Source of the DNA: a virus
Virus genome (UHGV): UHGV-0268593
Reading direction: 5' to 3' (one strand)
Length of the DNA: 36,393 bases
Below, in pieces: positions 9,583 to 35,290 of the stretch. A program made the translations under genes and the position numbers. How positions within the stretch are numbered: the first letter of the stretch is position 1; each line of letters opens with the position of its first letter. The notes under the pieces were generated by a model. The model was given only the letters and a program-made list of their open reading frames with translations. It was not told the DNA's origin and searched no databases.

Positions 9583-10563
9583 TTATTCTCCCGCTTTCAG
9601 GATCGCAAACGGGCATCTCTTAGTCTTATCTTTTGCAAGAGCATTGATTGGATTCGGGATTTCCCATCCAAGACGCATCACCGCACGAAGAGCAATCATA
9701 TCATTCTGCATCAGGTTGTATGCGATAGTTCCATCGGTGTTCTGAATCACGCCTTCCGTGAATAACTTGAATGTAATATCCTGTCTGATGGAATATACAA
9801 GCTGAGAGAAGTCTCCTGAAATCATCAGTGCCTTTGATTTGTCAAACGCTCCGTTGTTTGGGAAATTCATCGGAGAGCCATCTAAAGCATACTGCGTTGT
9901 TCCCTGCAGATCCTGCTTGAACAGCGGATCACCATTCGCGTTCTTCAACCCCCTGAGCTTTGCCCTCATGGAGATATCTGCCATGTGACCATTTACAAAG
10001 TAGCCAGATCCCTCAACTTTCGCAATGACGCCATCTTCTGCCATAATCTTGTCGTACAGACTGTCAGATGCTCCGAGTGTTACGACTGCACTCGCCTTTG
10101 TTGCAGTTGCAACCACATCTTCTCTCCATGTTGACGGCTTATTTTCTCCAAAAAGTACCGCTCCATCAATGACTTTTCCAAATGCTTCTGTCACTCTTGG
10201 CCTTACTTCTGCCCAAATATCATATTCCGAATCATCCAATACAGCTTCTGGAATCGGAACAATTACCGCAATTTCTTCCGCAGTGATAAACTTCTTGTCC
10301 CATGCCTGCTTTGCCGTTTTTTTCTGTCCATTGTCGCCATTTACAAAATAAGCGATCGGCAGCATATCCAATACCGGCATCTTGTACTGCTTACTGGTCA
10401 TATTTGCAAGCTTACGCCCTCTCGAAAGGACTGCCGACTGTGCGATTGTTCCCTGAATAATCTCGCTTGCTTCCTGCACCGGGATTAAAGACTCCGCTCC
10501 GGTACGATCGATAATGCTTACGTCATTATCAAAAATTCTTAAATTCATTCTGTTTCTGTTCAT
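9583..10563 (-). CDS. Major capsid protein
   Basis: A 326-aa ORF follows the scaffold gene. The N-terminus MNRNRMNLRIF-DND resembles a Prp cleavage motif. Confidence 0.8.
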   Translation of the reverse strand: MNRNRMNLRIFDNDVSIIDRTGAESLIPVQEASEIIQGTIAQSAVLSRGRKLANMTSKQYKMPVLDMLPIAYFVNGDNGQKKTAKQAWDKKFITAEEIAVIVPIPEAVLDDSEYDIWAEVRPRVTEAFGKVIDGAVLFGENKPSTWREDVVATATKASAVVTLGASDSLYDKIMAEDGVIAKVEGSGYFVNGHMADISMRAKLRGLKNANGDPLFKQDLQGTTQYALDGSPMNFPNNGAFDKSKALMISGDFSQLVYSIRQDITFKLFTEGVIQNTDGTIAYNLMQNDMIALRAVMRLGWEIPNPINALAKDKTKRCPFAILKAGE

Positions 10564-10575
10564 CTTCTACCTCCA

Positions 10576-11181
10576 TCATCTTCTTGCTGCAGCACGGATA
10601 CGTTCATTGATAGAAGCATTCATGCTTCCACCGGCTCCCTCCGAAGAGCTTCCCGAAGACGTAGACACCCGGTACGTGCCACTGCCTGTATATTTCGGGT
10701 TTTCTTTCAAATACTGTTCTGCAGCTTTTTCAAATGTTGTCTTGTCGTTTACCAGTTTCGATACCTTGAACATGACATAATCAAGATCCTCTGTCTTCAC
10801 TCCTTTGCCTGACAGAAATTTCTCGTTTTTCATCTGCTGTACTTCCTTTAGGGCATCGTCACGTTCTTTTTGCAACTTCGCCGTGTCCGGCTGATTCGCT
10901 GCACGTTCTGACTTAAATCTTGTGATCGCTTCTGTGACTTCTTCCTCTGTCATTCCCTGACCACGGAAAAAGCTTGCAAGAGCTGCACGTTCCGACTTGC
11001 TTGCCCTGGCACTTGCAATTTCTTCCAGCTGTTCATAGGTATAAGTTCCGGAATTGGAAGCTCCGGATGCACTTCCAGCGGTTCCCTGACCGCTGTTCCC
11101 AGTCCCGGCATTTCCGCTCTGTCCGTTAGAGCCAGCTCCGCTGCCGTCCTCAAAAAGCTGTAACATCATTCTTTTCTTCAT
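10576..11181 (-). CDS. Scaffolding protein
   Basis: 201 aa with a Gly/Ser-rich region followed by a charged helical region, placed directly upstream of the capsid gene. N-terminus is MKKRMMLQLF-ED. Confidence 0.7.
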   Translation of the reverse strand: MKKRMMLQLFEDGSGAGSNGQSGNAGTGNSGQGTAGSASGASNSGTYTYEQLEEIASARASKSERAALASFFRGQGMTEEEVTEAITRFKSERAANQPDTAKLQKERDDALKEVQQMKNEKFLSGKGVKTEDLDYVMFKVSKLVNDKTTFEKAAEQYLKENPKYTGSGTYRVSTSSGSSSEGAGGSMNASINERIRAAARR

Positions 11182-11239
11182 TGTTTCTACCTCCGTTTAT
11201 GCTTCGTTGAGCTCCCGAGCTTTTAACGCCTTCACGTTT

Positions 11240-11270
11240 TGGGCAAAAGAAAAACACCCCTCAGGGTGTC
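11240..11270 (-). terminator. Hairpin plus U-tract between the Prp and scaffold genes (terminator/attenuator-like)
   Basis: Stem ACACCC (11254-11259) and GGGTGT (11264-11269) with loop ctca. On the minus strand a T-rich run follows. The stem begins 3 nt after the Prp stop codon. Confidence 0.45.
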
Positions 11271-11272
11271 TC

Positions 11273-11560
11273 CTACAAAAATGTTATACAATTATATTCC
11301 CGGTTGATATCTGTCAATCCGAGAAACCACGAATCTAGCAGCAACTTCCCTCTGTCAGAAAGCCGCTCCCATTCGATCACGGTTCTTCCGCTCCCGGTAT
11401 CTGCCCTGATCCGGTCACCTGTCAGATCATTCAGCGAATTGATCAGGTTGCAGGTGAGAGCGGATACCGCTGCACATGCCCGGTCAATACCATCTGACCC
11501 TTTTCGGCAGGCATGGCCTTTTAATGCAAGCATGTCCTCTCGGACTTTCACCTCAATCAA
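11273..11560 (-). CDS. Prp-like cysteine protease (DUF464 ribosomal-processing protease family, phage form)
   Basis: The motif LKGHACRKGSDGIDRACAAVSAL matches the His/Cys dyad signature GHA...D.vCAavS. The gene sits immediately upstream of scaffold and capsid. Confidence 0.65.
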   Translation of the reverse strand: MIEVKVREDMLALKGHACRKGSDGIDRACAAVSALTCNLINSLNDLTGDRIRADTGSGRTVIEWERLSDRGKLLLDSWFLGLTDINREYNCITFL

Positions 11561-11623
11561 ACAATCACTCCTTTACATTTCCGGTCATTCCCCGCCGGTG
11601 GGAGATATCGGATCACCGCCTTT

Positions 11624-12073
11624 CTATGGATAGTCGTTTGCCATCATTTTCTCGAGATACCATTTTTTTAATTGTTTTTCATTGTCAATCTGTCGCTCTA
11701 TCATTTCGATTTCGTTATCGATCATTCTGATCTGTTCTACAATGTATCGCTGGTCTTTCTCGTTGTCATGCCAGTCTAAAATAAAATTTACGAGAGTACT
11801 AAACTGCAGATTGATTGTAGTCCTATATCTTCTTAAAAAATCTGGAAATACTCTTTTGATAGCTATGTAAAGGTAATCACAATCCACTTCTTTTTTCGGT
11901 TCAAACACTGCAAATCGGCTGTCTATGTTCCCAGCTTCCTTGATCTGTCCGACGAACTCATCGACTGCACTCAATTTAATAAAGCATGTACCGGCTTTAT
12001 ATTTCTTTCCTGATACAGCTCTCTCAACAATGCACACTTCACTGATATTTCTTTTTCTGCATCTTAATTTCAT
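11624..12073 (-). CDS. Type I HsdS-like specificity protein with a single target-recognition domain
   Basis: A TRD-like core (YLYIAIK...LVNFILDWH..EQIRMIDNEIE, a conserved helical repeat) overlaps the MTase gene through ATGA. The region is AT-rich. Confidence 0.55.
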   Translation of the reverse strand: MKLRCRKRNISEVCIVERAVSGKKYKAGTCFIKLSAVDEFVGQIKEAGNIDSRFAVFEPKKEVDCDYLYIAIKRVFPDFLRRYRTTINLQFSTLVNFILDWHDNEKDQRYIVEQIRMIDNEIEMIERQIDNEKQLKKWYLEKMMANDYP

Positions 12074-13371
12074 GTCCAGCTCAACTCCAACTGATCATAT
12101 TGTTTCTTTTCTGTTTTCCTTCTTTGCTTTGGATTTAAAATGATCTTATGCATCTCAATGGCATTCATATCCTCAGCGTTTCCAGTTAAATCCTGCAGCA
12201 TTTTATATAGCTCGTCTTTAACTTTTTTCTCTTCTTCGTCAATTTCTCTAAGATTCGTCAAAATCTTTCGTACATCTGGCAAAGGTTCATGCACGAAGCT
12301 GTCTACATACCTTGGTATGTTCAAATTGAAATCATTCTTTTCAATTTCCGAATAACTCGTAATATGCGAGTATCTCTCCACTTCTTGTCTGTTTAAAAAA
12401 GTATCTACAACTTTACCGGTCTGCTGTTCTGTCATATCGTTTTGTGCAGATTTTTTTATGAAATCTTTGCTCGCATCTATAAAAAGTATGTCCGGAGAAT
12501 CATATTGCAAAATTAAAACGAAAACCGGAATACTTGTATTTAAGAACAACTTATCCGGAAGTCCTATTACCGCATTGATTAAGCGCTCTTGCACTAACCA
12601 TTTTCGGATATCTCCTTCACCTGCCCCACGGAATAAAACACCATGCGGAAGAATTGCGATCAGTCGCCCGCCTCTGTTTAGATGCTCTAATCCACGTAAT
12701 ATGAATCCATAATCTGCTTTACTTTTCGGTATTTTATGTCCCATGATTCTCATCTCATCCGCCTCCGGAAATTTCATGGAATACGGTGGATTCATGATTA
12801 CATTATCAAAACATCCTGCTTCTTGTCGTTCCTGTAAGGATACGATACTGATACCGCCCCGCTCTTCAAGTAAGTAGGTTTCCTGTACTGTATTCCTCAG
12901 ACAATCCGCCTTGCTTATCGTGCCTTGCATACCGTTCATACATGCGTCCAGAATGGCAAATGGAATCGTCCTTTCAGAAAATTCCTGTTCGTTAATTTCA
13001 ATCCCACGTTTTAATGCAGCCATTTTACTCAGAGCTCCTGTTCCGGAACACATATCCAAACAAGTACCGTCAATCATTAGATCGGCTACAATAGAGCAGA
13101 TGCAATCGGGTGTAAAATCTTGCTTTAAACTTTTTCTATCTCCCTGCTCTTCCTGGAACATATCCCGAATATCGCAAGAAATTTGTTCTTTAATCTGCGT
13201 GATAGTCTTTTCTGCATCCGGTGATAATAACATCTCCATTATTTTGTCCGGAAGCCGGTAAGATTCTTTTACGTCAAAAAACTCCTGAAGTGTCATACCA
13301 CAACCTCTCCTCGCCTTAAAAATGGGTACAAAAATACCACTCACTCTCTCGAATGGGTGGTATCTATTCAA
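12070..13371 (-). CDS. N6-adenine DNA methyltransferase (gamma class, HsdM-like)
   Basis: Motif I is LDMCSGTGALS and motif IV is VIMNPPYS, with an FTPD N-terminal region. No restriction subunit is adjacent. Confidence 0.8.
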   Translation of the reverse strand: MNRYHPFERVSGIFVPIFKARRGCGMTLQEFFDVKESYRLPDKIMEMLLSPDAEKTITQIKEQISCDIRDMFQEEQGDRKSLKQDFTPDCICSIVADLMIDGTCLDMCSGTGALSKMAALKRGIEINEQEFSERTIPFAILDACMNGMQGTISKADCLRNTVQETYLLEERGGISIVSLQERQEAGCFDNVIMNPPYSMKFPEADEMRIMGHKIPKSKADYGFILRGLEHLNRGGRLIAILPHGVLFRGAGEGDIRKWLVQERLINAVIGLPDKLFLNTSIPVFVLILQYDSPDILFIDASKDFIKKSAQNDMTEQQTGKVVDTFLNRQEVERYSHITSYSEIEKNDFNLNIPRYVDSFVHEPLPDVRKILTNLREIDEEEKKVKDELYKMLQDLTGNAEDMNAIEMHKIILNPKQRRKTEKKQYDQLELSWT

Positions 13372-13621
13372 TTTGTTTCATTTCATCTTCTATTTCTTCT
13401 CTTTTCCAACCTTCCTCTGAGAGAATATCTAAGATTTCTTCCGGCTCACACAATATCTCTTCCAATTTCCAAATTCTTTCACGCAAGTGTGTTCTTCTGA
13501 CGGCAAATTCTATTTCTTCATCAGAATCCCCTAGCCTTCTAAAAACATCTTTCATTTCCTCATCTTCAATTTCCTGAAGTTTTTTATCGATATCAGGTGT
13601 ATCTGGGTCAAACATTGTCAT
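13364..13621 (-). CDS. Small highly acidic protein (possible DNA mimic)
   Basis: 85 aa, very rich in D/E, overlapping the MTase start. Confidence 0.4.
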   Translation of the reverse strand: MTMFDPDTPDIDKKLQEIEDEEMKDVFRRLGDSDEEIEFAVRRTHLRERIWKLEEILCEPEEILDILSEEGWKREEIEDEMKQIE

Positions 13622-15519
13622 TATAATCCCTCCATGATTTCTTCGAGTATTTCACCAAAGATTCTTGCTGCTTCTCGTGGTTTTTTACTAGTCATATATT
13701 CAGAAAAACATTCCGCAAAGAACTCTCGCTCATTTTTGTAAGCGTATTCTGAAATATGCTTTGTGATGAATTCCTTTTTAGAAAAATCTAACGCATCGTT
13801 CAGTTCTCGTCCTTTGTAGCCCATTCTAGTCCAGTCTGCACGCTCCGCACGTGTATAATCAAAATATCCTAATCTTTGTAAGACTTCTCTCCTAACTGCT
13901 ACGCTCGTCCTTGTTACACCATATTTTTCTATCTTTCCTCCATATATACCTTTCCATGTAAGGTAACCATCTAACTGATGTCCCATTTCATGAACGATTA
14001 TACTGTCGGCGGTAGTTCCAAGTGGAGAAAATCCAATTTTTATATAATGCTCATATTTTTTCTTTAACTTTTCGTAATCCGAAAAATAGGAACTAAGTTT
14101 AATAACACCATGCATAGAACTGCTTGAGGCAATCGACTTCAAATCTGAATCATATATGATTTTATTTGTATATCCTTTGAGCTGCGGAAATTTGTCAAAT
14201 ACTTTCTTAATTCCATTATATACCGATTTTCTTGATTTTTCATCAACTTTACTGAAATCAATTTTATCCTTACCGATACCCATTACTTTTGATAATTTTG
14301 ACTTTTCAAACAAGTTATCTGTACTGGAGGCTTTTATAACCATTTTTCTGGATATTTTTCCAGGTGCAACCCTGCCTTTCATATCCAAATAAATTCTTTC
14401 ACGTTCCTGTTTAAGTCCCATTTTCTTCGAGAACCTTGCATACTCATCTAACTGTCCTTGGTACTTACATCGAGCTAACATAACATCATCCGGATCAGCA
14501 CCGCCTTTTTGCAATAGCTGCACCTTTTCACGCTGTGCCCGCATAGCAGTTTCCATTTGACGCTGCCGTTGTTTTGCTTCGTAAAGAGTGTATTCTTTAC
14601 CACGGAACTCGGTCGGCTCGCTTTCTTTCCGATTCTGTTCGTCTAGCCAGTCATCCGTATAAGCTCGTACCGATACACCGGGAACAAAAGGGAAGTAAGT
14701 ATGGTAGCAGTTTGCTCCACATAGTCCGGTTACTGTACCGAGTCCACAGACATCATACAATTGCTGTTGACTCCACACTCTGCCCTGCCATATCGTATGC
14801 GTTGGTCTCGCCCCTGCGTGCCATTCCACTTCAAAATATTCCGTACCGAGCTTTTCAGCATTATATTCCGCAATCTTCCCAGAAAGCTGCGTCAGTCCGG
14901 TCATGACAGCCCGTCTTGCTGCGACCTCGATTCGATTTGCATACCCCGATGAATATTCTATCTGCCGAAGTCCGCTATTCGTGAGCTGAGTGACTACCCG
15001 CCGGAGAACTGTATTATAATCAAATGCTCCTGTGACAATGTCCATGCAGGCATTATCGAGATACCCACTGTATACCTGTGACAATGGAGTTAATACCTTT
15101 CTGCCACCGTAATCCAAATAAAAGCCTAGAGATCTTGTAATATTTTCCAAGTCCTCAAGGCTTTGCTTTTTGATAGCTGATGTCACCTGTATCAGATGTT
15201 CATTTTCTTCAAAAGGTATGTATTCCGCATTGATCTGTTCATAGAGGTCCTTGTTCCTGACGTATTCCCAGTCGATCACTTTGTCGTACAGTTCAAACAT
15301 TTCCGGGTAAGAAGCATTCAGAGTGTCTTTCAATGCATTTTCAATGTCCTCCGAAGAATACCCTAGTATTTTTAACCGGTTAATCTGCCAGTCTGCTGTG
15401 CTGGTGATTTCGCCCGTCTTCTTAATTCTCCGAACAATATCCTGCATGATCCTGACTTCAAGATCTGCGTATCTTGCCGCAATCTTGCTGGCGATCTTTT
15501 CCTTGTATTCATTTCTCAT
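13621..15519 (-). CDS. Minor head protein (MuF/SPP1 gp7 family) fused to a C-terminal anthrax-lethal-factor-like zincin domain
   Basis: 632 aa placed right after the portal gene. The C-terminus carries HEMGH followed by NEREFFAECF, the HExxH plus ExxFAExF gluzincin pattern. Confidence 0.75.
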   Translation of the reverse strand: MRNEYKEKIASKIAARYADLEVRIMQDIVRRIKKTGEITSTADWQINRLKILGYSSEDIENALKDTLNASYPEMFELYDKVIDWEYVRNKDLYEQINAEYIPFEENEHLIQVTSAIKKQSLEDLENITRSLGFYLDYGGRKVLTPLSQVYSGYLDNACMDIVTGAFDYNTVLRRVVTQLTNSGLRQIEYSSGYANRIEVAARRAVMTGLTQLSGKIAEYNAEKLGTEYFEVEWHAGARPTHTIWQGRVWSQQQLYDVCGLGTVTGLCGANCYHTYFPFVPGVSVRAYTDDWLDEQNRKESEPTEFRGKEYTLYEAKQRQRQMETAMRAQREKVQLLQKGGADPDDVMLARCKYQGQLDEYARFSKKMGLKQERERIYLDMKGRVAPGKISRKMVIKASSTDNLFEKSKLSKVMGIGKDKIDFSKVDEKSRKSVYNGIKKVFDKFPQLKGYTNKIIYDSDLKSIASSSSMHGVIKLSSYFSDYEKLKKKYEHYIKIGFSPLGTTADSIIVHEMGHQLDGYLTWKGIYGGKIEKYGVTRTSVAVRREVLQRLGYFDYTRAERADWTRMGYKGRELNDALDFSKKEFITKHISEYAYKNEREFFAECFSEYMTSKKPREAARIFGEILEEIMEGL

Positions 15520-15520
15520 A

Positions 15521-16936
15521 TCACTCCATCACCTGATTTTGCTCGGGAAGATTCTGACGAGCCTGCTCAACCGTTTCTCCATACCACTTCGCCCGATATT
15601 CTTCCAACCTCATCACGCCCATGCTCACATCCTGCCGATCCTGCTGACGTTCCGAATCCTTATCCTCAATGATGGAATCATCAAAATCTATCGTGATTTC
15701 TGTATCAGGATCCAGTACATTCCCCGTGACCTGACCGAGCCGGATAATAATTCTGATTAATCTCTTTAGCACGTCTTCCAGAATGATCTCATGCTTTTTC
15801 AGCATCCGGTACATGTCTGAATTTTCAGAAATAATTTCCGTAGCTGTTTTGGCTCCAATCCCGTTAAATTGATACCGGTTCGTGCCAAATCCACACTTTA
15901 AGGAAAGATAATTCAGATCGTCATTGATCGCCTTGCTGTGTGCTTCTACCCGAAGCTGCATATCAACTTCTTTGATAAGCCCTTCACCTTTTTCGTTATA
16001 ATCATCCGGCAGCTTGTAAAATACCGCATCCTCCGGGTCAAATGCCGGTGTCCCGTCATCATTGGTCAGCAATTCAGGTGCAACAAAAATCCGCTTTCGC
16101 CCAAGATCAAACTCATTACAATACGAATCATATTCAGTATCCAATTTTCTCAACGTATCAATAGCATTCGCAAAAATAGCAATTCCCATCGGGTTGCTCG
16201 TATCTGCATTATTGGTTATGTTTAAACGGTCAAGCACAAACTGCGGCTCTGTCGATCCGGTTTGAACAGTAGCTGTCAAATTCTTAAATGGTCGCAATTC
16301 TTTCCATTCTTTCTCATCAACTTCTGTTCCTGAAGACTCACCGGATCCACATCTGAGAACTTTATTTTCTATAATGTAATTTCCATCTTCTGCTTTTCGA
16401 TGATGCTGCAAATGCACATATTTCTTTCGATTGGCTGTATGCGGAAAAGCAAAAATACACTCCGAAACTTCTCCATTCTTCCAGCTCACTGGAAAAATAT
16501 TGGGTGCATCCACATATTCAATTCCAATCTTTCCTGATAGTACGGAGCCATCCTCGCTCACTTCCGTATCATACAAATACGGAATGTATGCAACTGTTCC
16601 AGTGTATGCCTTACGCTCCTGGAAGTCATTTCCGATCACCAGAAAATGGTTTTCATCTAATATTTCCTGCACAAATTTTTGTGTAGCATCATCTTCCAAT
16701 GTGATCATAACCTTTTCGTTTAGCAGCAGGTCTGCAATATCCTCAGAAAGCTTTTTCGCCATCCCCATGCTCTTTCGCCTGCATCGGTTATACGTTCCAC
16801 GCCCAGTATACGCCTTGTAAAAAGAAAACCCTCTTACATTGGAGTTGTACCAGCTGATCCATTCGTTTATCTTTTGATAAAATGACGTATCCACAGTGTC
16901 TATTCCTGCTTTCCTGAAATAACTAAAAATGTTCAC
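15521..16936 (-). CDS. Portal protein
   Basis: 471 aa between TerL and the MuF gene, with an ATGA overlap to TerL. Confidence 0.85.
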   Translation of the reverse strand: MNIFSYFRKAGIDTVDTSFYQKINEWISWYNSNVRGFSFYKAYTGRGTYNRCRRKSMGMAKKLSEDIADLLLNEKVMITLEDDATQKFVQEILDENHFLVIGNDFQERKAYTGTVAYIPYLYDTEVSEDGSVLSGKIGIEYVDAPNIFPVSWKNGEVSECIFAFPHTANRKKYVHLQHHRKAEDGNYIIENKVLRCGSGESSGTEVDEKEWKELRPFKNLTATVQTGSTEPQFVLDRLNITNNADTSNPMGIAIFANAIDTLRKLDTEYDSYCNEFDLGRKRIFVAPELLTNDDGTPAFDPEDAVFYKLPDDYNEKGEGLIKEVDMQLRVEAHSKAINDDLNYLSLKCGFGTNRYQFNGIGAKTATEIISENSDMYRMLKKHEIILEDVLKRLIRIIIRLGQVTGNVLDPDTEITIDFDDSIIEDKDSERQQDRQDVSMGVMRLEEYRAKWYGETVEQARQNLPEQNQVME

Positions 16937-18790: not shown

Positions 18791-19168
18791 TTAAATGCCT
18801 CTACGTCCTCCACGGCGACCTTTCGTAGCTCTCCTCTGATCTCCACGGTTGCCGCCCATCGATGCGTCTGCCTGGTTAAGAAAATCGTTCGTCGCTTTCC
18901 TGTCTGCCTCATATGCCTTCTGTTCTGCTGCTTTCGACGCTGCAGTTACCGGCTTTACAGTTGCCCCATTTGCCTGGACTCTTTTTGTAAAATCCCTTAC
19001 TGTCATATTCAGCGGAGTAGGCTGTGGCGTTCCTCCCACTCCCCGCTGATAATAATTCATTCCGTTTTTCTCGGAAAAATAATACCTTGTAGTCTCTCCG
19101 TTGTGCGTTACATCAACACCACTTCCACCTCCGCCGCCACCAGATTTACTCCCTCTACCACCCATCAC
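18791..19168 (-). CDS. Gly-rich hypothetical protein
   Basis: 125-aa ORF in the late operon before terS. Confidence 0.35.
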   Translation of the reverse strand: MMGGRGSKSGGGGGGSGVDVTHNGETTRYYFSEKNGMNYYQRGVGGTPQPTPLNMTVRDFTKRVQANGATVKPVTAASKAAEQKAYEADRKATNDFLNQADASMGGNRGDQRRATKGRRGGRRGI

Positions 19169-19787
19169 ACGATGCCTCCTTAAATTTTTCCTGAAATGCC
19201 TTTATTCGTACAATGTTCCCCGTACACTCTTCTGGGATCTGCCCGTAAAATATAATCTTAGTCGGATGCAACTTCTTAACCATTTCTTTGTATCCGGCAA
19301 GAAATAGTTCCCGGCTCTTTTTATTTTGCATGCACCCCACACTGGATACTGCCACCGTGCCTCCTGTGGGCTCTCCATCAAAGCACCAGGAATATGAATC
19401 CTCTGTACTCCATGCGATCGTTGGGATCACTTTTACCCCGTACATCTGCATATAAGCACCAATCCAATGCTTTCGGTAATGATTAAAGATCTGAACAGCT
19501 TTCGGAAAATCTGTATAAAGACTAAAATCCGGAGTAAATACGTACTGAAACTGCTGAAGCATCGGTATATATCTATCCGGATCATTCCATAATCTTATAA
19601 ATTGATAGTCGTCAATAAAGAAATGAATGCTTTTCTTTTCTCTATCCTTACTTGTTGCTGCAAAATTGAATGGAATAAACTCTGTATCTCCATCAAAATC
19701 TACTGGCTTAAGTGTAGGTATCCCATACTCGCCCACACCATCAAATACCATACGTTCTAAATTTTCATATCTTTTCGGATCTCGCAA
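19155..19787 (-). CDS. Phage protein (DUF4417-like), first gene of the late operon
   Basis: 210 aa with TTG start and a GAGGTGGTGA SD. Confidence 0.45.
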   Translation of the reverse strand: MRDPKRYENLERMVFDGVGEYGIPTLKPVDFDGDTEFIPFNFAATSKDREKKSIHFFIDDYQFIRLWNDPDRYIPMLQQFQYVFTPDFSLYTDFPKAVQIFNHYRKHWIGAYMQMYGVKVIPTIAWSTEDSYSWCFDGEPTGGTVAVSSVGCMQNKKSRELFLAGYKEMVKKLHPTKIIFYGQIPEECTGNIVRIKAFQEKFKEASCDGW

Positions 19788-22128: not shown

Positions 22129-22398
22129 TCAATCTACCTCGCATTGCTTAGCACCGGATTTCACAATCTCAATACATTTACATATTCTTTGGTATTCATT
22201 AATGCCATGTGCTGGTGTTCCGTCAATCAGTTCCATGTCTTTGAAATCTTCCAACATATCAACAACCTTGTCCACGTCATAGGCTGTTGGCTGTTCTTTT
22301 AGCATATCTTCAATATCGGGAATACAAAACTCGTATCCTCTACCCAGATACTTTGCAATTTCACCGCTTGTAATCTTGTCCACATCAATTAGTCTCAT
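22129..22398 (-). CDS. Hypothetical protein
   Basis: 89-aa co-oriented ORF. Confidence 0.35.
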   Translation of the reverse strand: MRLIDVDKITSGEIAKYLGRGYEFCIPDIEDMLKEQPTAYDVDKVVDMLEDFKDMELIDGTPAHGINEYQRICKCIEIVKSGAKQCEVD

Positions 22399-22582
22399 AA
22401 CTACTCCTCCTATTCCACATTTTTATTGCTCCATCTCTTGTATCAGCGTTTCCGGCTCGTCCGAAACATCTGCTGCATACCACCATATATCTCGTTCCAC
22501 CGCCCAATGCCTGCGGAGCTTCATGAGAAAACAGTTCGCCTTCTCTTCTGCAAAACGGGCATGGTTTTAATTCTTCCATCAA
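22385..22582 (-). CDS. Lar-family restriction alleviation protein
   Basis: KPCPFC...CSRC zinc-ribbon with a C-terminal WNRR, typical of Lar-family proteins. Confidence 0.55.
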   Translation of the reverse strand: MMEELKPCPFCRREGELFSHEAPQALGGGTRYMVVCSRCFGRAGNADTRDGAIKMWNRRSSYETN

Positions 22583-29649: not shown

Positions 29650-30036
29650 TTGAAAGATCGTTTAAAAAAATTACGCAAAGAATTAGATTTAACACAACAA
29701 GCTTTTGCAGATAAAATAGGAATGAAGCAAAACACAATTGCTCAATATGAAATGGGTAGAACAACCCCTAGTGACGCAATTATATTTTCTATATGTAGAG
29801 AATTTGGAGTTAATGAGAAGTGGTTAAGATCTGGTGAAGGCGAAATGTTTGAGGAATTGACTAATCAGCAGAAAATTCTGAAATACACAGCATTACTGCT
29901 CAAAGATAAAGATTCGGCTGTAGCAGACGCTATTCAAACATTAATTGTTACTTATGAGCAACTGGATGATACAAGTAAAGCAGTATTGGAAAAGATTGCT
30001 AAGCAATATATTGATAACTTAAAAAAGAGCCAGTAA
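29650..30036 (+). CDS. cI-like repressor (XRE HTH)
   Basis: 128 aa with an N-terminal HTH (LTQQAFADKIGMKQNTIAQYE). The TTG start follows a GGCGGTGAG SD. No S24 peptidase domain is present. Confidence 0.7.
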   Translation: MKDRLKKLRKELDLTQQAFADKIGMKQNTIAQYEMGRTTPSDAIIFSICREFGVNEKWLRSGEGEMFEELTNQQKILKYTALLLKDKDSAVADAIQTLIVTYEQLDDTSKAVLEKIAKQYIDNLKKSQ

Positions 30037-30692: not shown

Positions 30693-32285
30693 ATGGGTAT
30701 AGGGGATATTTTTAAAATCAAGCAATTCAAAGAACGGATTGCCAGTCTTGAAACGGAGAATCAAACGCTTTCACAAAATAATGCCGACTTACAGGCAGCT
30801 ACTACTGAATTAAGAGGAAAGCTTTCTGAAATTGGTGGATTTGACTACTATAAAGTAAAATCCATGACCGAACAGATGGAAAAAGAGTACGCTGTCAAAC
30901 AAAGAGATCTGAGTATAGAGTATGATGTAAAAGTAGATACTCTGAAAAAGGAATACGAAAGAAAGCAGGCAGAAGCAGAAAAAGGCTTACGAGAGCAACT
31001 TGTCCAGCTTGAAAGAATGATTTCTGACCGCACAGACAAATCGCAGTCATTACAGGAAAAAATTGCTGAAGAAATGCTTCAGGAAAGTAAACTTGCTAAA
31101 CAGATCAAGACCCAAACCAATAAACTCGGACGATCAAAAGAGTTGGTAAAAGCAATCAATTACAGTTTGGACAATTTCTTTAATTATGATCCTGCAATCA
31201 GTTCTTTAAAATTTAGCGAAAAAGATTTAACCGATTTGGAGGAAATCAGTCCTTCCGTTATCCTAAAACTCCATTGCATGGATGTAAAAGATCTCCGCAA
31301 AGCCTACCGTCAAAATGATAAGCAAATCAATGATCTTTTAGCAAAATATTCTGCCCGGTATACTACTAAAGCGAATCAGGCAATTTATAAACTTATGGTC
31401 ATTGCTCTTAGAGCAGAACTTCAAAATATCCTGTATAACCTTAAATTTGAAAAGCTTGAAAAATCTATTGATGATATCAAAGATGTAACTCATAAATATC
31501 TTGAGATTGCAGGAAATGGAAATCAGAGCATCGCAGGAACTCTTACCAAATTTATTGGAGAAATAGAGTATTTGTTTATTAATGCAGCAAAGATTGAATA
31601 TAATTACTACGTTAAAAAAGAACAGGCTCGTCAGGAACAACTTGCTATCCGTGAGCAAATGAGACAGGAAGCCGAGGAACGTAAAGCACTGGAAGCTGAA
31701 CGTAAAAAAATAGAACAGGAAGAATCAAAATACAATTCCGAAATTGAAAAGCTGAGAACCCAACTCACCAGTGCTAAAGACGAGGAGGTTGAAAAATTAA
31801 ACGCAAGAATCCTTGCACTACAGGCTCAACTTGCTGACGTTGCTATAAAGAAAGACGAAATTTCTACTCTTGCCAATGGAAAAGCTGGTAACGTGTACGT
31901 TATCAGTAATCTTGGATCTTTTGGCGAAAATGTATTTAAGATTGGAATGACCCGAAGACTCAATCCACAGGATCGAGTAGATGAACTTGGTAATGCATCT
32001 GTTCCATTCCGTTTTGACGTACATAGCTTTATTTTTTCTGATGATGCAGTTGGTCTTGAAAACAAACTCCATACTATCCTGACTGACAAACGTGTAAATA
32101 AAGTAAATATGAGAAAAGAATTTTTCAATGTATCACTTGATGAACTGGAACAACTTGTTACAGAAATAGAACCTACAGCAGAGTTCAACAGGACTATGGC
32201 TGCTGAAGAGTTCAGACAATCACAATCAACAGACAGCATTTATTCGTCCGATTATACTTATAGTGATGATGAAGACGATGAATAA
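30693..32285 (+). CDS. DUF4041 coiled-coil protein with a C-terminal T5orf172 (GIY-YIG-like) domain
   Basis: 530 aa with a long coiled-coil N-terminus. The C-terminus carries VYVISN..FKIGMTRR..ASVPF.FDVH..IF.DDA...RVNKVN.RKEFF. AGGAGA SD. The gene is AT-rich relative to its flanks. Confidence 0.8.
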   Translation: MGIGDIFKIKQFKERIASLETENQTLSQNNADLQAATTELRGKLSEIGGFDYYKVKSMTEQMEKEYAVKQRDLSIEYDVKVDTLKKEYERKQAEAEKGLREQLVQLERMISDRTDKSQSLQEKIAEEMLQESKLAKQIKTQTNKLGRSKELVKAINYSLDNFFNYDPAISSLKFSEKDLTDLEEISPSVILKLHCMDVKDLRKAYRQNDKQINDLLAKYSARYTTKANQAIYKLMVIALRAELQNILYNLKFEKLEKSIDDIKDVTHKYLEIAGNGNQSIAGTLTKFIGEIEYLFINAAKIEYNYYVKKEQARQEQLAIREQMRQEAEERKALEAERKKIEQEESKYNSEIEKLRTQLTSAKDEEVEKLNARILALQAQLADVAIKKDEISTLANGKAGNVYVISNLGSFGENVFKIGMTRRLNPQDRVDELGNASVPFRFDVHSFIFSDDAVGLENKLHTILTDKRVNKVNMRKEFFNVSLDELEQLVTEIEPTAEFNRTMAAEEFRQSQSTDSIYSSDYTYSDDEDDE

Positions 32286-32465
32286 TTAAAAAACCGCCCC
32301 TTCGCCAAAAGGAGCGGCACTGGAAGCACACGCCAATGTGCTTATCGAATACCTCCGAAGAGATACACTTCAAATCCAATGAATATTGTATCATCTTCGG
32401 ACAGCCACTGCAAGTGGAACACACGTTCCTCGCTGGCTGTTATTTTTATACTAGGAGATGATAAT

Positions 32466-33581
32466 ATGGCTACAGCTAAAAAGTTACCTTCAGGATCTTG
32501 GAGGTGCTTAGTTTTTTCGCACTATGAAAACCTGTTCAATGAGGACGGAAGTCCTATGATTGACGAGAAGACCGGAAAGCAGAAGCGGAAAAGGATTTAT
32601 GAATCGTTTACCAGTGACTTACAGGGAAGACGTGGAAAGCGGGATGCAGAAGCTCAGGCGGCTCAGTTCCTTGCAGAGAAAGACCGGAAAAAACGCCCTG
32701 AGAACTGGACAGTGAAGGAAGCTTTTGAAAATTACATAAAGTTAAAGGATCATGTGCTGTCCGAGACTACTCTCCGTGGTTATGAGACGATCACCCGGAA
32801 TCAGATCGGACAGATAGCAGATATCAGCCTCCGCAAGCTCTCGCAGGAAGACGTACAGAGCTGGATCAACATTCTGTCGGTAAAGTTATCGCCTAAGACC
32901 GTAAAGAACGCTTACGGGCTGTTTACAGCGGTCATGCGGATGTATCTGCCGGATATGCACTTCCATACCACTCTACCATCTGCAAAGACCTATGAGGGGT
33001 ATGTGCCATCCGATCAGGACATCACGGATCTGATCTGCTATATCCGGGGAACTGAACTGGAAAAAGCAGTGCTTCTCGCAGCGTTTGGAAGTCTCAGGCG
33101 TGGAGAAGTCTTCGGGCTGACGAAAGAGGATATCAAGGGGAACTCCATACGGATCAGAGAGACGAAAGTCCGGGGACGTAGTGGGATCATCAAAAAAGGT
33201 CCTAAGACACAGAGCAGCTACCGATACATTATCATGCCGGAATTTGTGATCCGAAAATTTGACGATATCGAAAGCGGTCCGCTTGTCAGGATGCACCCGG
33301 AAGATCTCTCTAAAAACTTTAAAAAAGTGCTTCGTTCTGCTGGGATTCCTGAATTTCGATACCATGATCTCAGACATTATACTGCATCCATTATGCACGC
33401 CCTGAACATTCCGGATCAGTACATCATGAAGCGTGGTGGATGGAAGTCTGACAGAGTCCTGAAAAGGGTATACCGTGGCACGATTGCACCGGAAGAAGAG
33501 AGATTTACAGACCGAATCAACGAGCATTTTACGGAAATGATGCAACACGCCATGCAACACGATAAGCGAAAAGCCTTATAA
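32466..33581 (+). CDS. int: Tyrosine integrase
   Basis: Contains RYHDLRHY, the catalytic R..H..R..Y context. ATG at 32466 follows an AGGAGA SD. The track also shows an in-frame upstream ATG at 32379 without an SD. Confidence 0.9.
   Translation: MATAKKLPSGSWRCLVFSHYENLFNEDGSPMIDEKTGKQKRKRIYESFTSDLQGRRGKRDAEAQAAQFLAEKDRKKRPENWTVKEAFENYIKLKDHVLSETTLRGYETITRNQIGQIADISLRKLSQEDVQSWINILSVKLSPKTVKNAYGLFTAVMRMYLPDMHFHTTLPSAKTYEGYVPSDQDITDLICYIRGTELEKAVLLAAFGSLRRGEVFGLTKEDIKGNSIRIRETKVRGRSGIIKKGPKTQSSYRYIIMPEFVIRKFDDIESGPLVRMHPEDLSKNFKKVLRSAGIPEFRYHDLRHYTASIMHALNIPDQYIMKRGGWKSDRVLKRVYRGTIAPEEERFTDRINEHFTEMMQHAMQHDKRKAL
33540..33563 (+). repeat. Two tandem ATGCAACACG arm-type-like repeats in the integrase 3' end (candidate P-arm sites)
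   Basis: ATGCAACACG at 33540 and at 33552. They encode MQHA and MQHD. Confidence 0.45.
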
Positions 33582-33836: not shown

Positions 33837-34865
33837 TTATTTCACTCTCAGTTTCTGACCAACATAAATCTTATTCGGATTTTTGATGCCGTTCAGCGTT
33901 GCAATCTTCTGATAGGTTGTACCGTATTTTGCTGCGATCTTTGACAGGGTATCACCTGATTTCACCGTATAGTACACAGCAGACGATCCTGAGCCACTTC
34001 CGTTGATTACTTTCTGCACTTCTGCATACCGTTTTCCGAGTACCGTCTTTCTTGTATCTCCATTTCCATATTTTCCTGCCTTTGTTTCCGATGCAAGCGT
34101 GGATGCTGATGCAGTAGCGATATGGTTAATAAAGGTCTGCACCTCGGAGTAACGACTGCCAAGTTTCGTCTTACGTGTATCGCCATCACCATACTTGCCT
34201 GACAGCGTATCTACCACAAGCTGCAATGTTGTTCCAATCGGCACGACTGCACTGGGACTGGATGCAGGCTGTGATGGCTTGCTGATCCCTGTGATTTCTG
34301 CCGGAAAATCACGATAGCAATAATTAACATCTACCCGTCCACTAATGCCCGGAACACTTCCATCGGAGCTGTACTGCCACATATCAGCTTTCATCCCAAG
34401 TGTACTGTTATAGCGTGCAATCCACAGTGGATATCTTGTCCCCAGCGAACTTAAGTAATTATCCCACCAGGATTTATTACAATACACTCCACACTTATAT
34501 CCTGCTGCTTCGATCAGTGCAGCAAATTTCTTCATACGGTCAACCGCACCTGTCTGTGTTCCTGATTCTTCCAGGTCATAAAATACCGGATACGACAGTT
34601 TATATCCTTTCACCAGTCTCAGCACATGTCTTGCCTCTGACTCTGCCTGTGCAGTTGTCTTTGCATACGAATAAATATAAACACCAAACGGAATCCCCAG
34701 TCTGGTACATTCATTTGCATTTCTCTTCCACTGCTTATCATCCTGGGAAGTCAGATCATCCCCGTAACCACACCGAATGATCGCATGATATCCTGCTGCC
34801 TTAACTTTCTCCCAGTTAATAGTTCCCTGATGATACGATATGTCTACTACATTAATTGTTGCCAT
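33837..34865 (-). CDS. Endolysin: GH25 muramidase with two CW_7-like repeats and a C-terminal LysM
   Basis: The N-terminus has the GH25 pattern ([12 protein letters not shown]...G). Two GKYG(N/D)GDTRKT.LG.RY.EVQ repeats and a LysM ([17 protein letters not shown]) follow. Confidence 0.85.
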
Positions 34866-34867
34866 AA

Positions 34868-35290
34868 TTATTCTTCCTCCTTATCTGAATCTCTCAACTG
34901 TAAAAGTACATCTTTCAGCCGTTCCGGGATTGGAACAAATACAGCTGCATTTTCCAAAAGACTCAACGCTTCGTTGCAAATGTAAAATGTAATAACCACT
35001 TCCCGGAGTGGAATCGTGCCACCGATCAGCATCTGAATTAAGTAAGCCACAGCGATCACAATAAACATCACGATCTTTTTCAGCAATCCACGAAATCCCG
35101 TTTCTGATGAGAGCTGTTTCAGGTAAATCCCTTTCAGGACTCCCGTAACATAATCCAGCACTGCAAGACACACGATCGTCTTAAGCAGTACATCCCATCC
35201 TCCTAAAAAGTACGCAAGGATTCCACCTAAGAATCCAAACACAATGCTGATTTCATTAAATAACTTGTCCATCTTTTTCATATTCCTCAC
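34868..35290 (-). CDS. Holin (phage_holin_4_1-like)
   Basis: 140 aa with multiple TM helices and a charged C-terminus, placed immediately upstream of the endolysin. Confidence 0.75.

Follow-up and report, generated by a model that had tools for sequence, protein, structure and literature searches.

The virus genome UHGV-0268593, analysed here over its full 36,393 nucleotides (the window), carries in its late head operon a small accessory element encoding two proteins: an N6-adenine DNA methyltransferase (MTase) of the HsdM kind, here called M, and a 149-aa protein, here called S, which resembles a Type I specificity subunit cut down to a single target-recognition domain (TRD). A sequence-only reading of the same DNA had pointed to an accessory insertion encoding a Type-I-like M+S methylase without a restriction (R) subunit, and sister-phage alignments and homology searches bear this out. 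It had also placed three minus-strand open reading frames (ORFs) between the MuF gene and the Prp and scaffold genes, which the ORF calls reproduce, and had joined all three, including a small acidic 85-aa protein, into one block. Comparison with relatives indicates that the accessory element is a 1.74-kb cassette of two genes, M and S, and not a three-gene operon, the acidic gene belonging by linkage and composition to the MuF unit and lying outside the methylase cassette. We think it likely that the cassette is a nuclease-less adenine methylase in the style of the 'Type 1 1/2' enzymes, made late, acting de novo and marking progeny DNA against restriction.

Extent of the insert

DNA alignments against three relatives (L003, L004 and L005) put the edges of the insert at ~13310 and ~11575. 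Sister-phage homology crosses the hairpin and U-run that lie 3' of the 85-aa stop and ends 15 nt before the MTase ATG, so that only these 15 nt separate the insert edge from the M start; on the far side it restarts at the Prp ribosome-binding site (RBS; AAAGGAGTGAT). In four relatives (L003, L004, L080 and L082) the order is MuF, 85-aa gene, Prp without MTase or S, and because nothing lies between them there, the insert holds two genes only. Sister phages lacking MTase and S have head modules identical to the window's, while four IMG/VR contigs (L014-L017) share its arrangement in full. The same place may also be filled differently: between the 85-aa gene and Prp, L005 carries two helix-turn-helix (HTH) proteins, AntA and two small ORFs (L005 6259-8914), and L084 has a 60-aa ORF in the same slot (L084 5281-5463). 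In this group of phages the interval from the 85-aa gene to Prp serves as a hotspot for cargo, with a left edge that always lies directly after the conserved hairpin and U-run. In the window the hotspot gap sequence is that of 11561-11623 and 13297-13363. The hairpin has a 14-bp stem (-23.2 kcal/mol, z -3.16); it is present in MTase-less relatives and is kept in L003 with a loop change from GAGA to UUCG.

The block had been called a moron and AT-richer than its surroundings. The AT-richness itself is real, with a GC content of 0.389 in the insert (M 0.390, S 0.358) against 0.435 in the window, but it is not specific to the block, as 15% of stretches of the same length have a GC content as low or lower. 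The low GC also spans the 85-aa gene (0.353) and the MuF C-terminal domain (0.343), both lower still, the neighbouring values being 0.493 for Prp and 0.454 for the N-terminal part of MuF (MuF-N). The scan for an insert-specific promoter gave 8 promoter-like sites against 7.1 expected, none of them 5' of M inside the insert, which has no room for a promoter of its own, and no terminator was found after S (fold z +0.85). Like a moron, then, the cassette comes as an accessory insert among the head genes, found in some related phages and missing from others between flanking genes that are conserved; it has neither its own promoter and terminator nor an atypical composition confined to the insert, and the label is only loosely right.

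The two subunits and their linkage

The assignment of M as an N6-adenine MTase, first made from its motifs, is confirmed. DMCSGTG is followed by NPPY, the S-adenosylmethionine-binding motif I thus preceding catalytic motif IV, and the protein matches PF02384 (1.3e-49, 169.6 bits against a cutoff of 20.4) and PADLOC MTase_I (4.6e-65). Against TIGR00497 (hsdM) it scores 125.5 bits, under the cutoff of 242.75, and covers profile positions 197-513 only. The N-terminal domain HsdM_N (PF12161) gave no match in M at E<=0.1 in Pfam and is likewise missing from the Pfam annotations precomputed for the 120 best M homologues; full-length homologues have ~400-440 aa. Among solved structures the Streptococcus thermophilus HsdM (PDB 3lkd) is closest (1.1e-50), with a match that reaches residue 374. 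A structure model of M (predicted local distance difference test, pLDDT, 86.5) consists of short N-terminal helices (1-51), a Rossmann domain (64-335) and C-terminal helices (342-403), and its top Foldseek matches are HsdM chains (3lkd, PacII, EcoR124I). Those C-terminal helices are of the HsdM kind that dock on the conserved region (CR) of S, and in the window's pair such docking is predicted. By its profile matches and modelled fold, M is a gamma-class N6-adenine DNA MTase, HsdM-like, lacking HsdM_N and retaining the C-terminal helices.

M most likely comprises 408 aa from the ATG at 13296, which we prefer because it has an RBS (GGAGAGG) and because the homologues begin MTLxEIF; it lies 68 nt 3' of the 85-aa stop. 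The TTG at 13371, with which the longest ORF begins, was rejected as the start on the same N-terminal evidence and since the stretch it would add is the conserved hairpin region, also present in MTase-less relatives.

The smaller protein had been read as one TRD plus the conserved helix of HsdS, and profile, PADLOC and fold comparisons all agree with that reading. A profile built from 32 S homologues finds the HsdS structure 1yf2 at 1.5e-7, together with 1ydx, 5ybb, 3okg and the EcoR124 S subunit (7bst), and 16 PADLOC Specificity_I models match S, the best at 7.9e-7. In the AlphaFold model (pLDDT 91.1) the head is small and rich in beta structure; one helix spans 65-83, and the C-terminal helix, of 42 residues, spans 105-146. 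Foldseek places HsdS chains first (5ybb_D, 1ydx, 1yf2 and 3okg; probability 1.0, query TM-score 0.63-0.72), with further matches to the S subunits of PacII and BsaXI and to the half-S homodimer Esub1 (E 1.2e-3, target TM-score 0.50). Where a canonical chain has two TRDs and two CRs, S has one TRD and one helix, and it is only ~15% identical to canonical HsdS or to any TRD of known specificity. Profiles and model together make the 149-aa protein a genuine HsdS homologue with a single TRD.

The pairing of the two genes is strict. The M stop and S start overlap in ATGA, and across the 66 IMG/VR loci found via S, M stands immediately 5' of S in every one of the 63 that retain upstream sequence, with the identities of the two proteins co-varying from locus to locus (M 50-68%, S 56-67%). 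An exhaustive profile search gave 1070 clusters (50% identity) of the mini-S family with a threshold of E<=1e-3 and 256 with E<=1e-10; their members nearly always have 140-160 aa. Ten of the best 150 mini-S matches are much longer (553-606 aa) and have the mini-S match at the C-terminus; the four of these ten that were scanned against Pfam all have an N-terminal N6_Mtase domain, and natural single-chain M~S fusions are therefore indicated by their domain order. The long M~mini-S proteins include P0285, P0298, P0324 and P0337. Residues 7-387 of P0285 share 40% identity with the window's M and residues 433-568 share 34% with its S; this S part passes the PF01420 (Methylase_S) cutoff of 22 at 24.5, and P0298 passes it at 25.3. 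P0276 and P0395 (341 and 348 aa) are mini-S in their first half and a PF01420 domain in their second. As far as homology can tell, the fusions tie the mini-S family to canonical HsdS and are Rosetta-stone evidence for joint M+S function; with M~mini-S fusions and two-TRD proteins made of mini-S and Methylase_S both at hand, all stages of the proposed series from half-S to full-S and from M+S to M~S occur within one family.

The absence of HsdR, claimed earlier, also holds: the window has no gene of HsdR size, its sole ORF above 650 aa being the tape measure protein, and neither HsdR nor a recognisable restriction endonuclease was found in 13 Pfam-annotated metagenomic contexts and 3 GenBank phage records. 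Cassettes of this kind most commonly lie 2-4 kb upstream of the large terminase gene (TerL). Other placements are between TerL and portal (L038, L087-89), between portal and ClpP (L007-10) and, as in the window, between the MuF/85-aa pair and Prp; the cassette is also found in the replication modules of the streptococcal phages IPP23, phiZJ20091101-4 and Pika and in an element resembling an integrative and conjugative element (ICE) with Rep, ParB-like and integrase genes (L011-13). In Pika, a 145-aa 'hypothetical protein' 3' of the MTase matches the mini-S profile (hhalign 99.3%). A GTDB genome scan returned three loci, all prophage-like, and identified no chromosomal R-M ancestor. In two prophage copies the MTase is split into two ORFs (L009 6782-8010 and L052 4793-5990), and in another locus it is MuF that is split, into 525 and 87 aa (L083 3096-5004, NCBI assembly GCA_001312505.1); these split copies suggest decay of accessory or toxin genes in resident prophages.

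Probable self-methylation and competing roles

Self-methylation against host restriction is most likely the best functional reading of the cassette. We infer the composition of the enzyme and the symmetry of its site by analogy to truncated HsdS proteins and to M.AhdI. In Type I enzymes every TRD engages one M and one half of the site (Loenen et al. 2014, PMC3874165), and truncated, single-TRD HsdS proteins dimerise to recognise symmetric sites, TCA N8 TGA for EcoDXXI-delta and GAA N7 TTC for EcoR124I-delta-50 (PMC3874165). The natural 'Type 1 1/2' MTases M.AhdI, M.BsaBI and M.PshAI have a separate M and a single-TRD S, M.AhdI being composed of 2M+2S (PMC3874165); engineered M-half-S enzymes have MTase activity and palindromic recognition sites (PMC6158711), and the half-S Esub1 forms a homodimer in the crystal (PMC11754733). 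In the window, by the same logic, two S chains would pair via their helices and so mimic the two TRDs that HsdS has in one chain, each TRD would dock one M, and the resulting M2S2 complex, ~130 kDa from computed masses, would methylate one adenine per strand of a symmetric interrupted (bipartite) site. The M~S fusions and the two-TRD relatives, together with these precedents, lend such an arrangement indirect support.

As the insert has no promoter of its own, M and S would be expressed through read-through of the late operon, shortly before packaging. Replicated phage DNA would then be methylated de novo ahead of packaging, and progeny would reach the next host already protected from restriction enzymes whose sites overlap the motif. 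The missing HsdM_N would be compatible with the de novo activity needed by a phage, mutations in the N-terminal part of M being able to turn M.EcoKI from a maintenance into a de novo MTase (PMC3874165), and the protection of exported DNA by orphan MTases is a recognised strategy of mobile genetic elements (MGEs; PMC12707154). The earlier wording, which names host Type I systems as the target, is too narrow. An MTase with one motif guards only against enzymes with an overlapping site, and these could equally well be Type IIP enzymes, as in the AhdI family.

It also should be said what weighs against this reading. Searched as a single sequence, the 149-aa S gave nothing at E<=0.1 in Pfam, where PF01420 would be the expected family, and no useful match in NCBIfam. 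Across the S family, mean pairwise column identity is 0.63 in the TRD and 0.43 in the coiled-coil helix, which makes the TRD the better conserved part, the opposite of what is seen in HsdS families driven by an arms race. Such conservation suggests one fixed specificity, which could serve regulation or housekeeping instead of anti-restriction. Directly 5' of M stands the conserved terminator-like hairpin, so that late read-through is an assumption. Finally, the analysis identified no host R-M system whose specificity would match.

The conserved TRD bears on two of the alternatives. One is epigenetic or lysogenic conversion, in which the M+S pair of the prophage would methylate the host chromosome at a fixed motif and alter host or prophage expression. 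Regulatory orphan MTases are well known, and the ICE-like elements (L011-13) carry the same cassette. However, late packaging and head operons, which are silent in lysogens, house the cassette in the window and in several further lineages, the promoter-like signal is not above chance in an insert without promoter space, and prophage MTases of group A Streptococcus (GAS) have little or no transcript in lysogens (PMC8597746). We consider this role unlikely.

The other alternative is a packaging-linked mark, by which methylation of a motif would regulate DNA packaging or late expression in the phage itself. Dam methylation controls cleavage of the P1 pac site. There are at least three independent placements in packaging or head operons (those between MuF/85-aa and Prp, portal and ClpP, and TerL and portal), and such a mark would explain the repeated insertion among terminase, portal, MuF and protease genes, as well as the conserved TRD. 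Most members, the streptococcal phage copies included, lie instead 2-4 kb upstream of TerL or in replication modules; moreover, the identical head modules of the cassette-less sister phages argue that the cassette is dispensable for packaging. A regulatory mark of this sort is, in our view, very improbable.

A half-S may also be imagined as a specificity add-on which, with or without M, joins a host Type I HsdM/HsdR and changes or jams its specificity. Plasmid-borne orphan HsdS genes in Lactococcus plug into host Type I systems in just this way. The precedent of MGE orphan HsdS combining with chromosomal HsdM/R has been discussed (PMC11318856), and the CR helix of S would, in principle, allow pairing with a further S or M. 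Yet S is never seen without its own co-evolving M, and it is with that M family that the natural fusions are made. The distance of S from canonical HsdS and the lack of HsdM_N in M are further points against such an exchange, and even for Esub1 binding of the half-S to host HsdM has not been conclusively demonstrated (PMC11754733). We give this explanation almost no weight.

Set beside known systems, self-methylation by the cassette would be ordinary phage counter-defence, combining two known kinds of enzyme, the phage orphan MTases and the single-TRD M+S MTases. With M.AhdI, M.BsaBI and M.PshAI it shares a separate HsdM-like M and a single-TRD S, and enzymes of the M.AhdI kind have been described as natural equivalents of truncated HsdS mutants recognising symmetric interrupted sites (PMC3874165). 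Those, however, are the modification half of an R-M system with a Type IIP nuclease, whereas the contexts examined here hold no nuclease, and neither a Type IIP endonuclease nor a C protein adjoins the window's genes, the insert holding M and S only. M is also shorter in the window (408 aa, without HsdM_N), S is very small, and the stoichiometry and site are predicted. Canonical Type I M2S1 enzymes (EcoKI, EcoR124I) have the same catalytic fold and motifs, C-terminal M helices, TRD and CR architecture, and overlapping, translationally coupled hsdM-hsdS genes. They differ in having two TRDs in S as well as HsdR and HsdM_N, M falls below their TIGR00497 equivalog cutoff, and in classical families it is the CR, not the TRD, that is the more conserved. 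Esub1 of Streptococcus pyogenes (8VSQ/8VSR; PMC11754733) is alike in its single TRD-like head and single dimerisation helix, which give a homodimer mimicking HsdS, but it is a stand-alone chromosomal protein of 23 kDa that has an insertion helix and no adjacent M, whereas the window's S is always M-paired. Orphan MTases of phages and other MGEs (PMC12707154) are likewise R-less and found on temperate phages. Most described phage examples are single-chain and Type II-like, while the window enzyme would need a separate specificity subunit. The streptococcal phages IPP23, phiZJ20091101-4 and Pika carry the same pair of M and a ~145-aa protein, with S annotated as 'hypothetical protein'.

A bolder proposal would make the mini-S (~145 aa) and the HsdM_N-less M (~405 aa) a distinct, uncurated, nuclease-free 'Type 1 1/2' family of Firmicutes mobile elements, with one specificity and with methylation coupled to packaging. 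We find it quite unlikely. If it were true, placement in packaging and head operons would mean the marking of export-bound DNA only, or a regulation of packaging or late expression, and not mere anti-restriction cargo.

The MuF unit, the phage and implications

The 85-aa protein is indeed rich in acidic residues (30 D/E, net charge -17, isoelectric point 4.3), and in this phage it adjoins the cassette. On these grounds it may be taken for a DNA mimic like Ocr or ArdA, acting beside M+S in a three-gene anti-restriction operon. That reading is largely refuted by synteny. In every context fetched the homologues lie directly 3' of a MuF of ~634 aa with an overlapping start (TAATG in the window, the 85-aa start with the MuF stop), whether M/S is present or not: M/S is missing beside the gene in L003, L004, L006 and L080-L086, and L005 has other cargo. 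Conversely, the gene is absent from all other M+S contexts. In L081 it has moved together with the C-terminal part of MuF (MuF-C) into a different head module, whose TerL, Prp and major capsid protein are not detectably related to the window's and whose portal is 28% identical. The translational coupling of three genes that was first supposed can be kept for M and S, with their overlap, and not for the acidic gene, which overlaps MuF and is parted from M by the 68-nt gap with its conserved hairpin. Nor did searches for Ocr or ArdA give a match to the protein at E<=0.1 in Pfam, NCBIfam and PHROGs or at E<=0.01 in PADLOC. A DNA-mimic operon is, we believe, extremely improbable.

We assign the 85-aa gene to the MuF unit because of this constant linkage and a shared low GC content at third codon positions (GC3), 0.291 in the 85-aa gene and 0.289 in MuF-C, compared with 0.455 in MuF-N. 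Phages whose MuF lacks the C-terminal domain have no 85-aa gene. The C-terminal extension of MuF has 269 aa and an HExxH motif (HEMGH), and it matches the anthrax-lethal-factor-like family ATLF (PF07737) at 1.4e-5 and 25.4 bits, just under the cutoff of 27.4. Weak UBA-like and RepB_primase_C-like Pfam matches among the 85-aa homologues yield no functional assignment. The 85-aa protein contains two copies of a ~25-aa motif, E-E-h-x-D-h-h-x-x-x-G-x-x-x-E-E-I-E, and the local self-alignment score of this internal repeat, 45, was reached by 9 of 2000 shuffles.

MuF has the look of a metallopeptidase-class polymorphic toxin, for which the 85-aa gene is the candidate immunity partner. In a survey of such toxins, 89% of MuF toxin genes were followed by an ORF of less than 150 aa, proposed to confer immunity, and 20% of the toxins had a metallopeptidase domain (Jamet et al. 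2017, PMC5576092). The likeness to these systems (PMC5576092) lies in the MuF N-domain, a C-terminal domain of variable kind and a small 3' ORF, which here overlaps MuF and shares its atypical composition; toxicity and immunity are putative. It is limited by the ATLF match, which stays below the Pfam cutoff, and by an 85-aa family that has no annotated function. Rather than a DNA mimic, the 85-aa protein is most likely the partner of MuF, putatively in immunity or in some accessory role.

The features of the locus are collected in Table 1. The phage, one of gut bacteria, is a temperate siphovirus, apparently of Lachnospiraceae, with the cassette in the late head operon between the MuF/85-aa unit and Prp. 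Its hosts appear to be Lachnospiraceae; the GTDB matches include a Lachnospiraceae metagenome-assembled genome (MAG) and Bilifractor porci, and the source names attached to homologues include Lachnospira and Mediterraneibacter. Megablast of 10500-16000 against GenBank phages gave no match at all, and by that search the phage has no close cultured relative. An endolysin (GH25-CW_7-LysM, 33837-35290, minus) and a holin lie beyond the integrase (32379-33581, plus), while the tail genes start at the opposite end of the window; for this reason the window seems to be a temperate phage genome of ~36 kb, circularly permuted or complete, and not a prophage with host flanks.

Table 1. Positions of the cassette, its neighbours and the Lar-family gene in the window
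Feature	Position	Strand	Remarks
MuF gene	13621-15519	minus	632 aa; PF06152 6.4e-108
MuF C-terminal extension, HEMGH motif	13621-14430	minus	residues 364-632; ATLF-like match
85-aa acidic protein ORF	13364-13621	minus	outside methylase cassette
Terminator-like hairpin and U-run	13332-13365	minus	terminator scan and fold; between 85-aa gene and insert
M+S cassette, ~1.74 kb	11575-13310	minus	DNA alignments; missing in sister phages; M and S genes only
MTase, longest ORF	12070-13371	minus	TTG start at 13371
M subunit, likely real gene	12070-13296	minus	408 aa; predicted HsdM-like gamma-class N6-adenine DNA MTase without HsdM_N
S subunit, miniature half-HsdS	11624-12073	minus	149 aa; predicted TRD ~10-100, conserved-region helix 105-146
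Prp	11273-11560	minus	3' of S; followed by scaffold and major capsid protein
Lar-family small protein	22385-22582	minus	PF14354; early region

Other genes of the phage touch on defence and counter-defence. The Lar-family protein noted earlier is confirmed by PF14354 (4.5e-12, 46.5 bits against a cutoff of 28.6, profile positions 1-57 of 58), and its gene is a separate anti-restriction candidate. A 530-aa protein (30693-32285, plus) has a C-terminal T5orf172/MUG113 domain and matches models of the anti-phage defence system PD-Lambda-1 at 1.7e-82; its gene has the HTH repressor (29650-30036) on one side and the integrase (32379-33581) on the other, and is read as a probable defence gene of the prophage that is expressed in lysogens. 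The window also encodes, at 19155-19787 (minus) and just 5' of the small terminase gene, a DUF4417 protein (7e-62).

The cassette does not overturn current understanding. Its study does define a cargo hotspot 3' of the MuF/85-aa unit and reassign the 85-aa protein as a candidate MuF immunity partner. A widespread family of ~145-aa phage 'hypothetical proteins' (256 clusters at E<=1e-10), with cultured Streptococcus phages among its carriers, becomes readable as putative specificity subunits of the HsdM-like MTases that adjoin them, and because of this such MTases ought not to be treated as single-chain Type II orphans when phage methylomes and host range are predicted. As a natural minimal system of M and half-S, of ~65 kDa per protomer, the pair could aid the study of how Type I MTases assemble, and it could inform ideas on the proposed ancestral form of the Type I enzymes.

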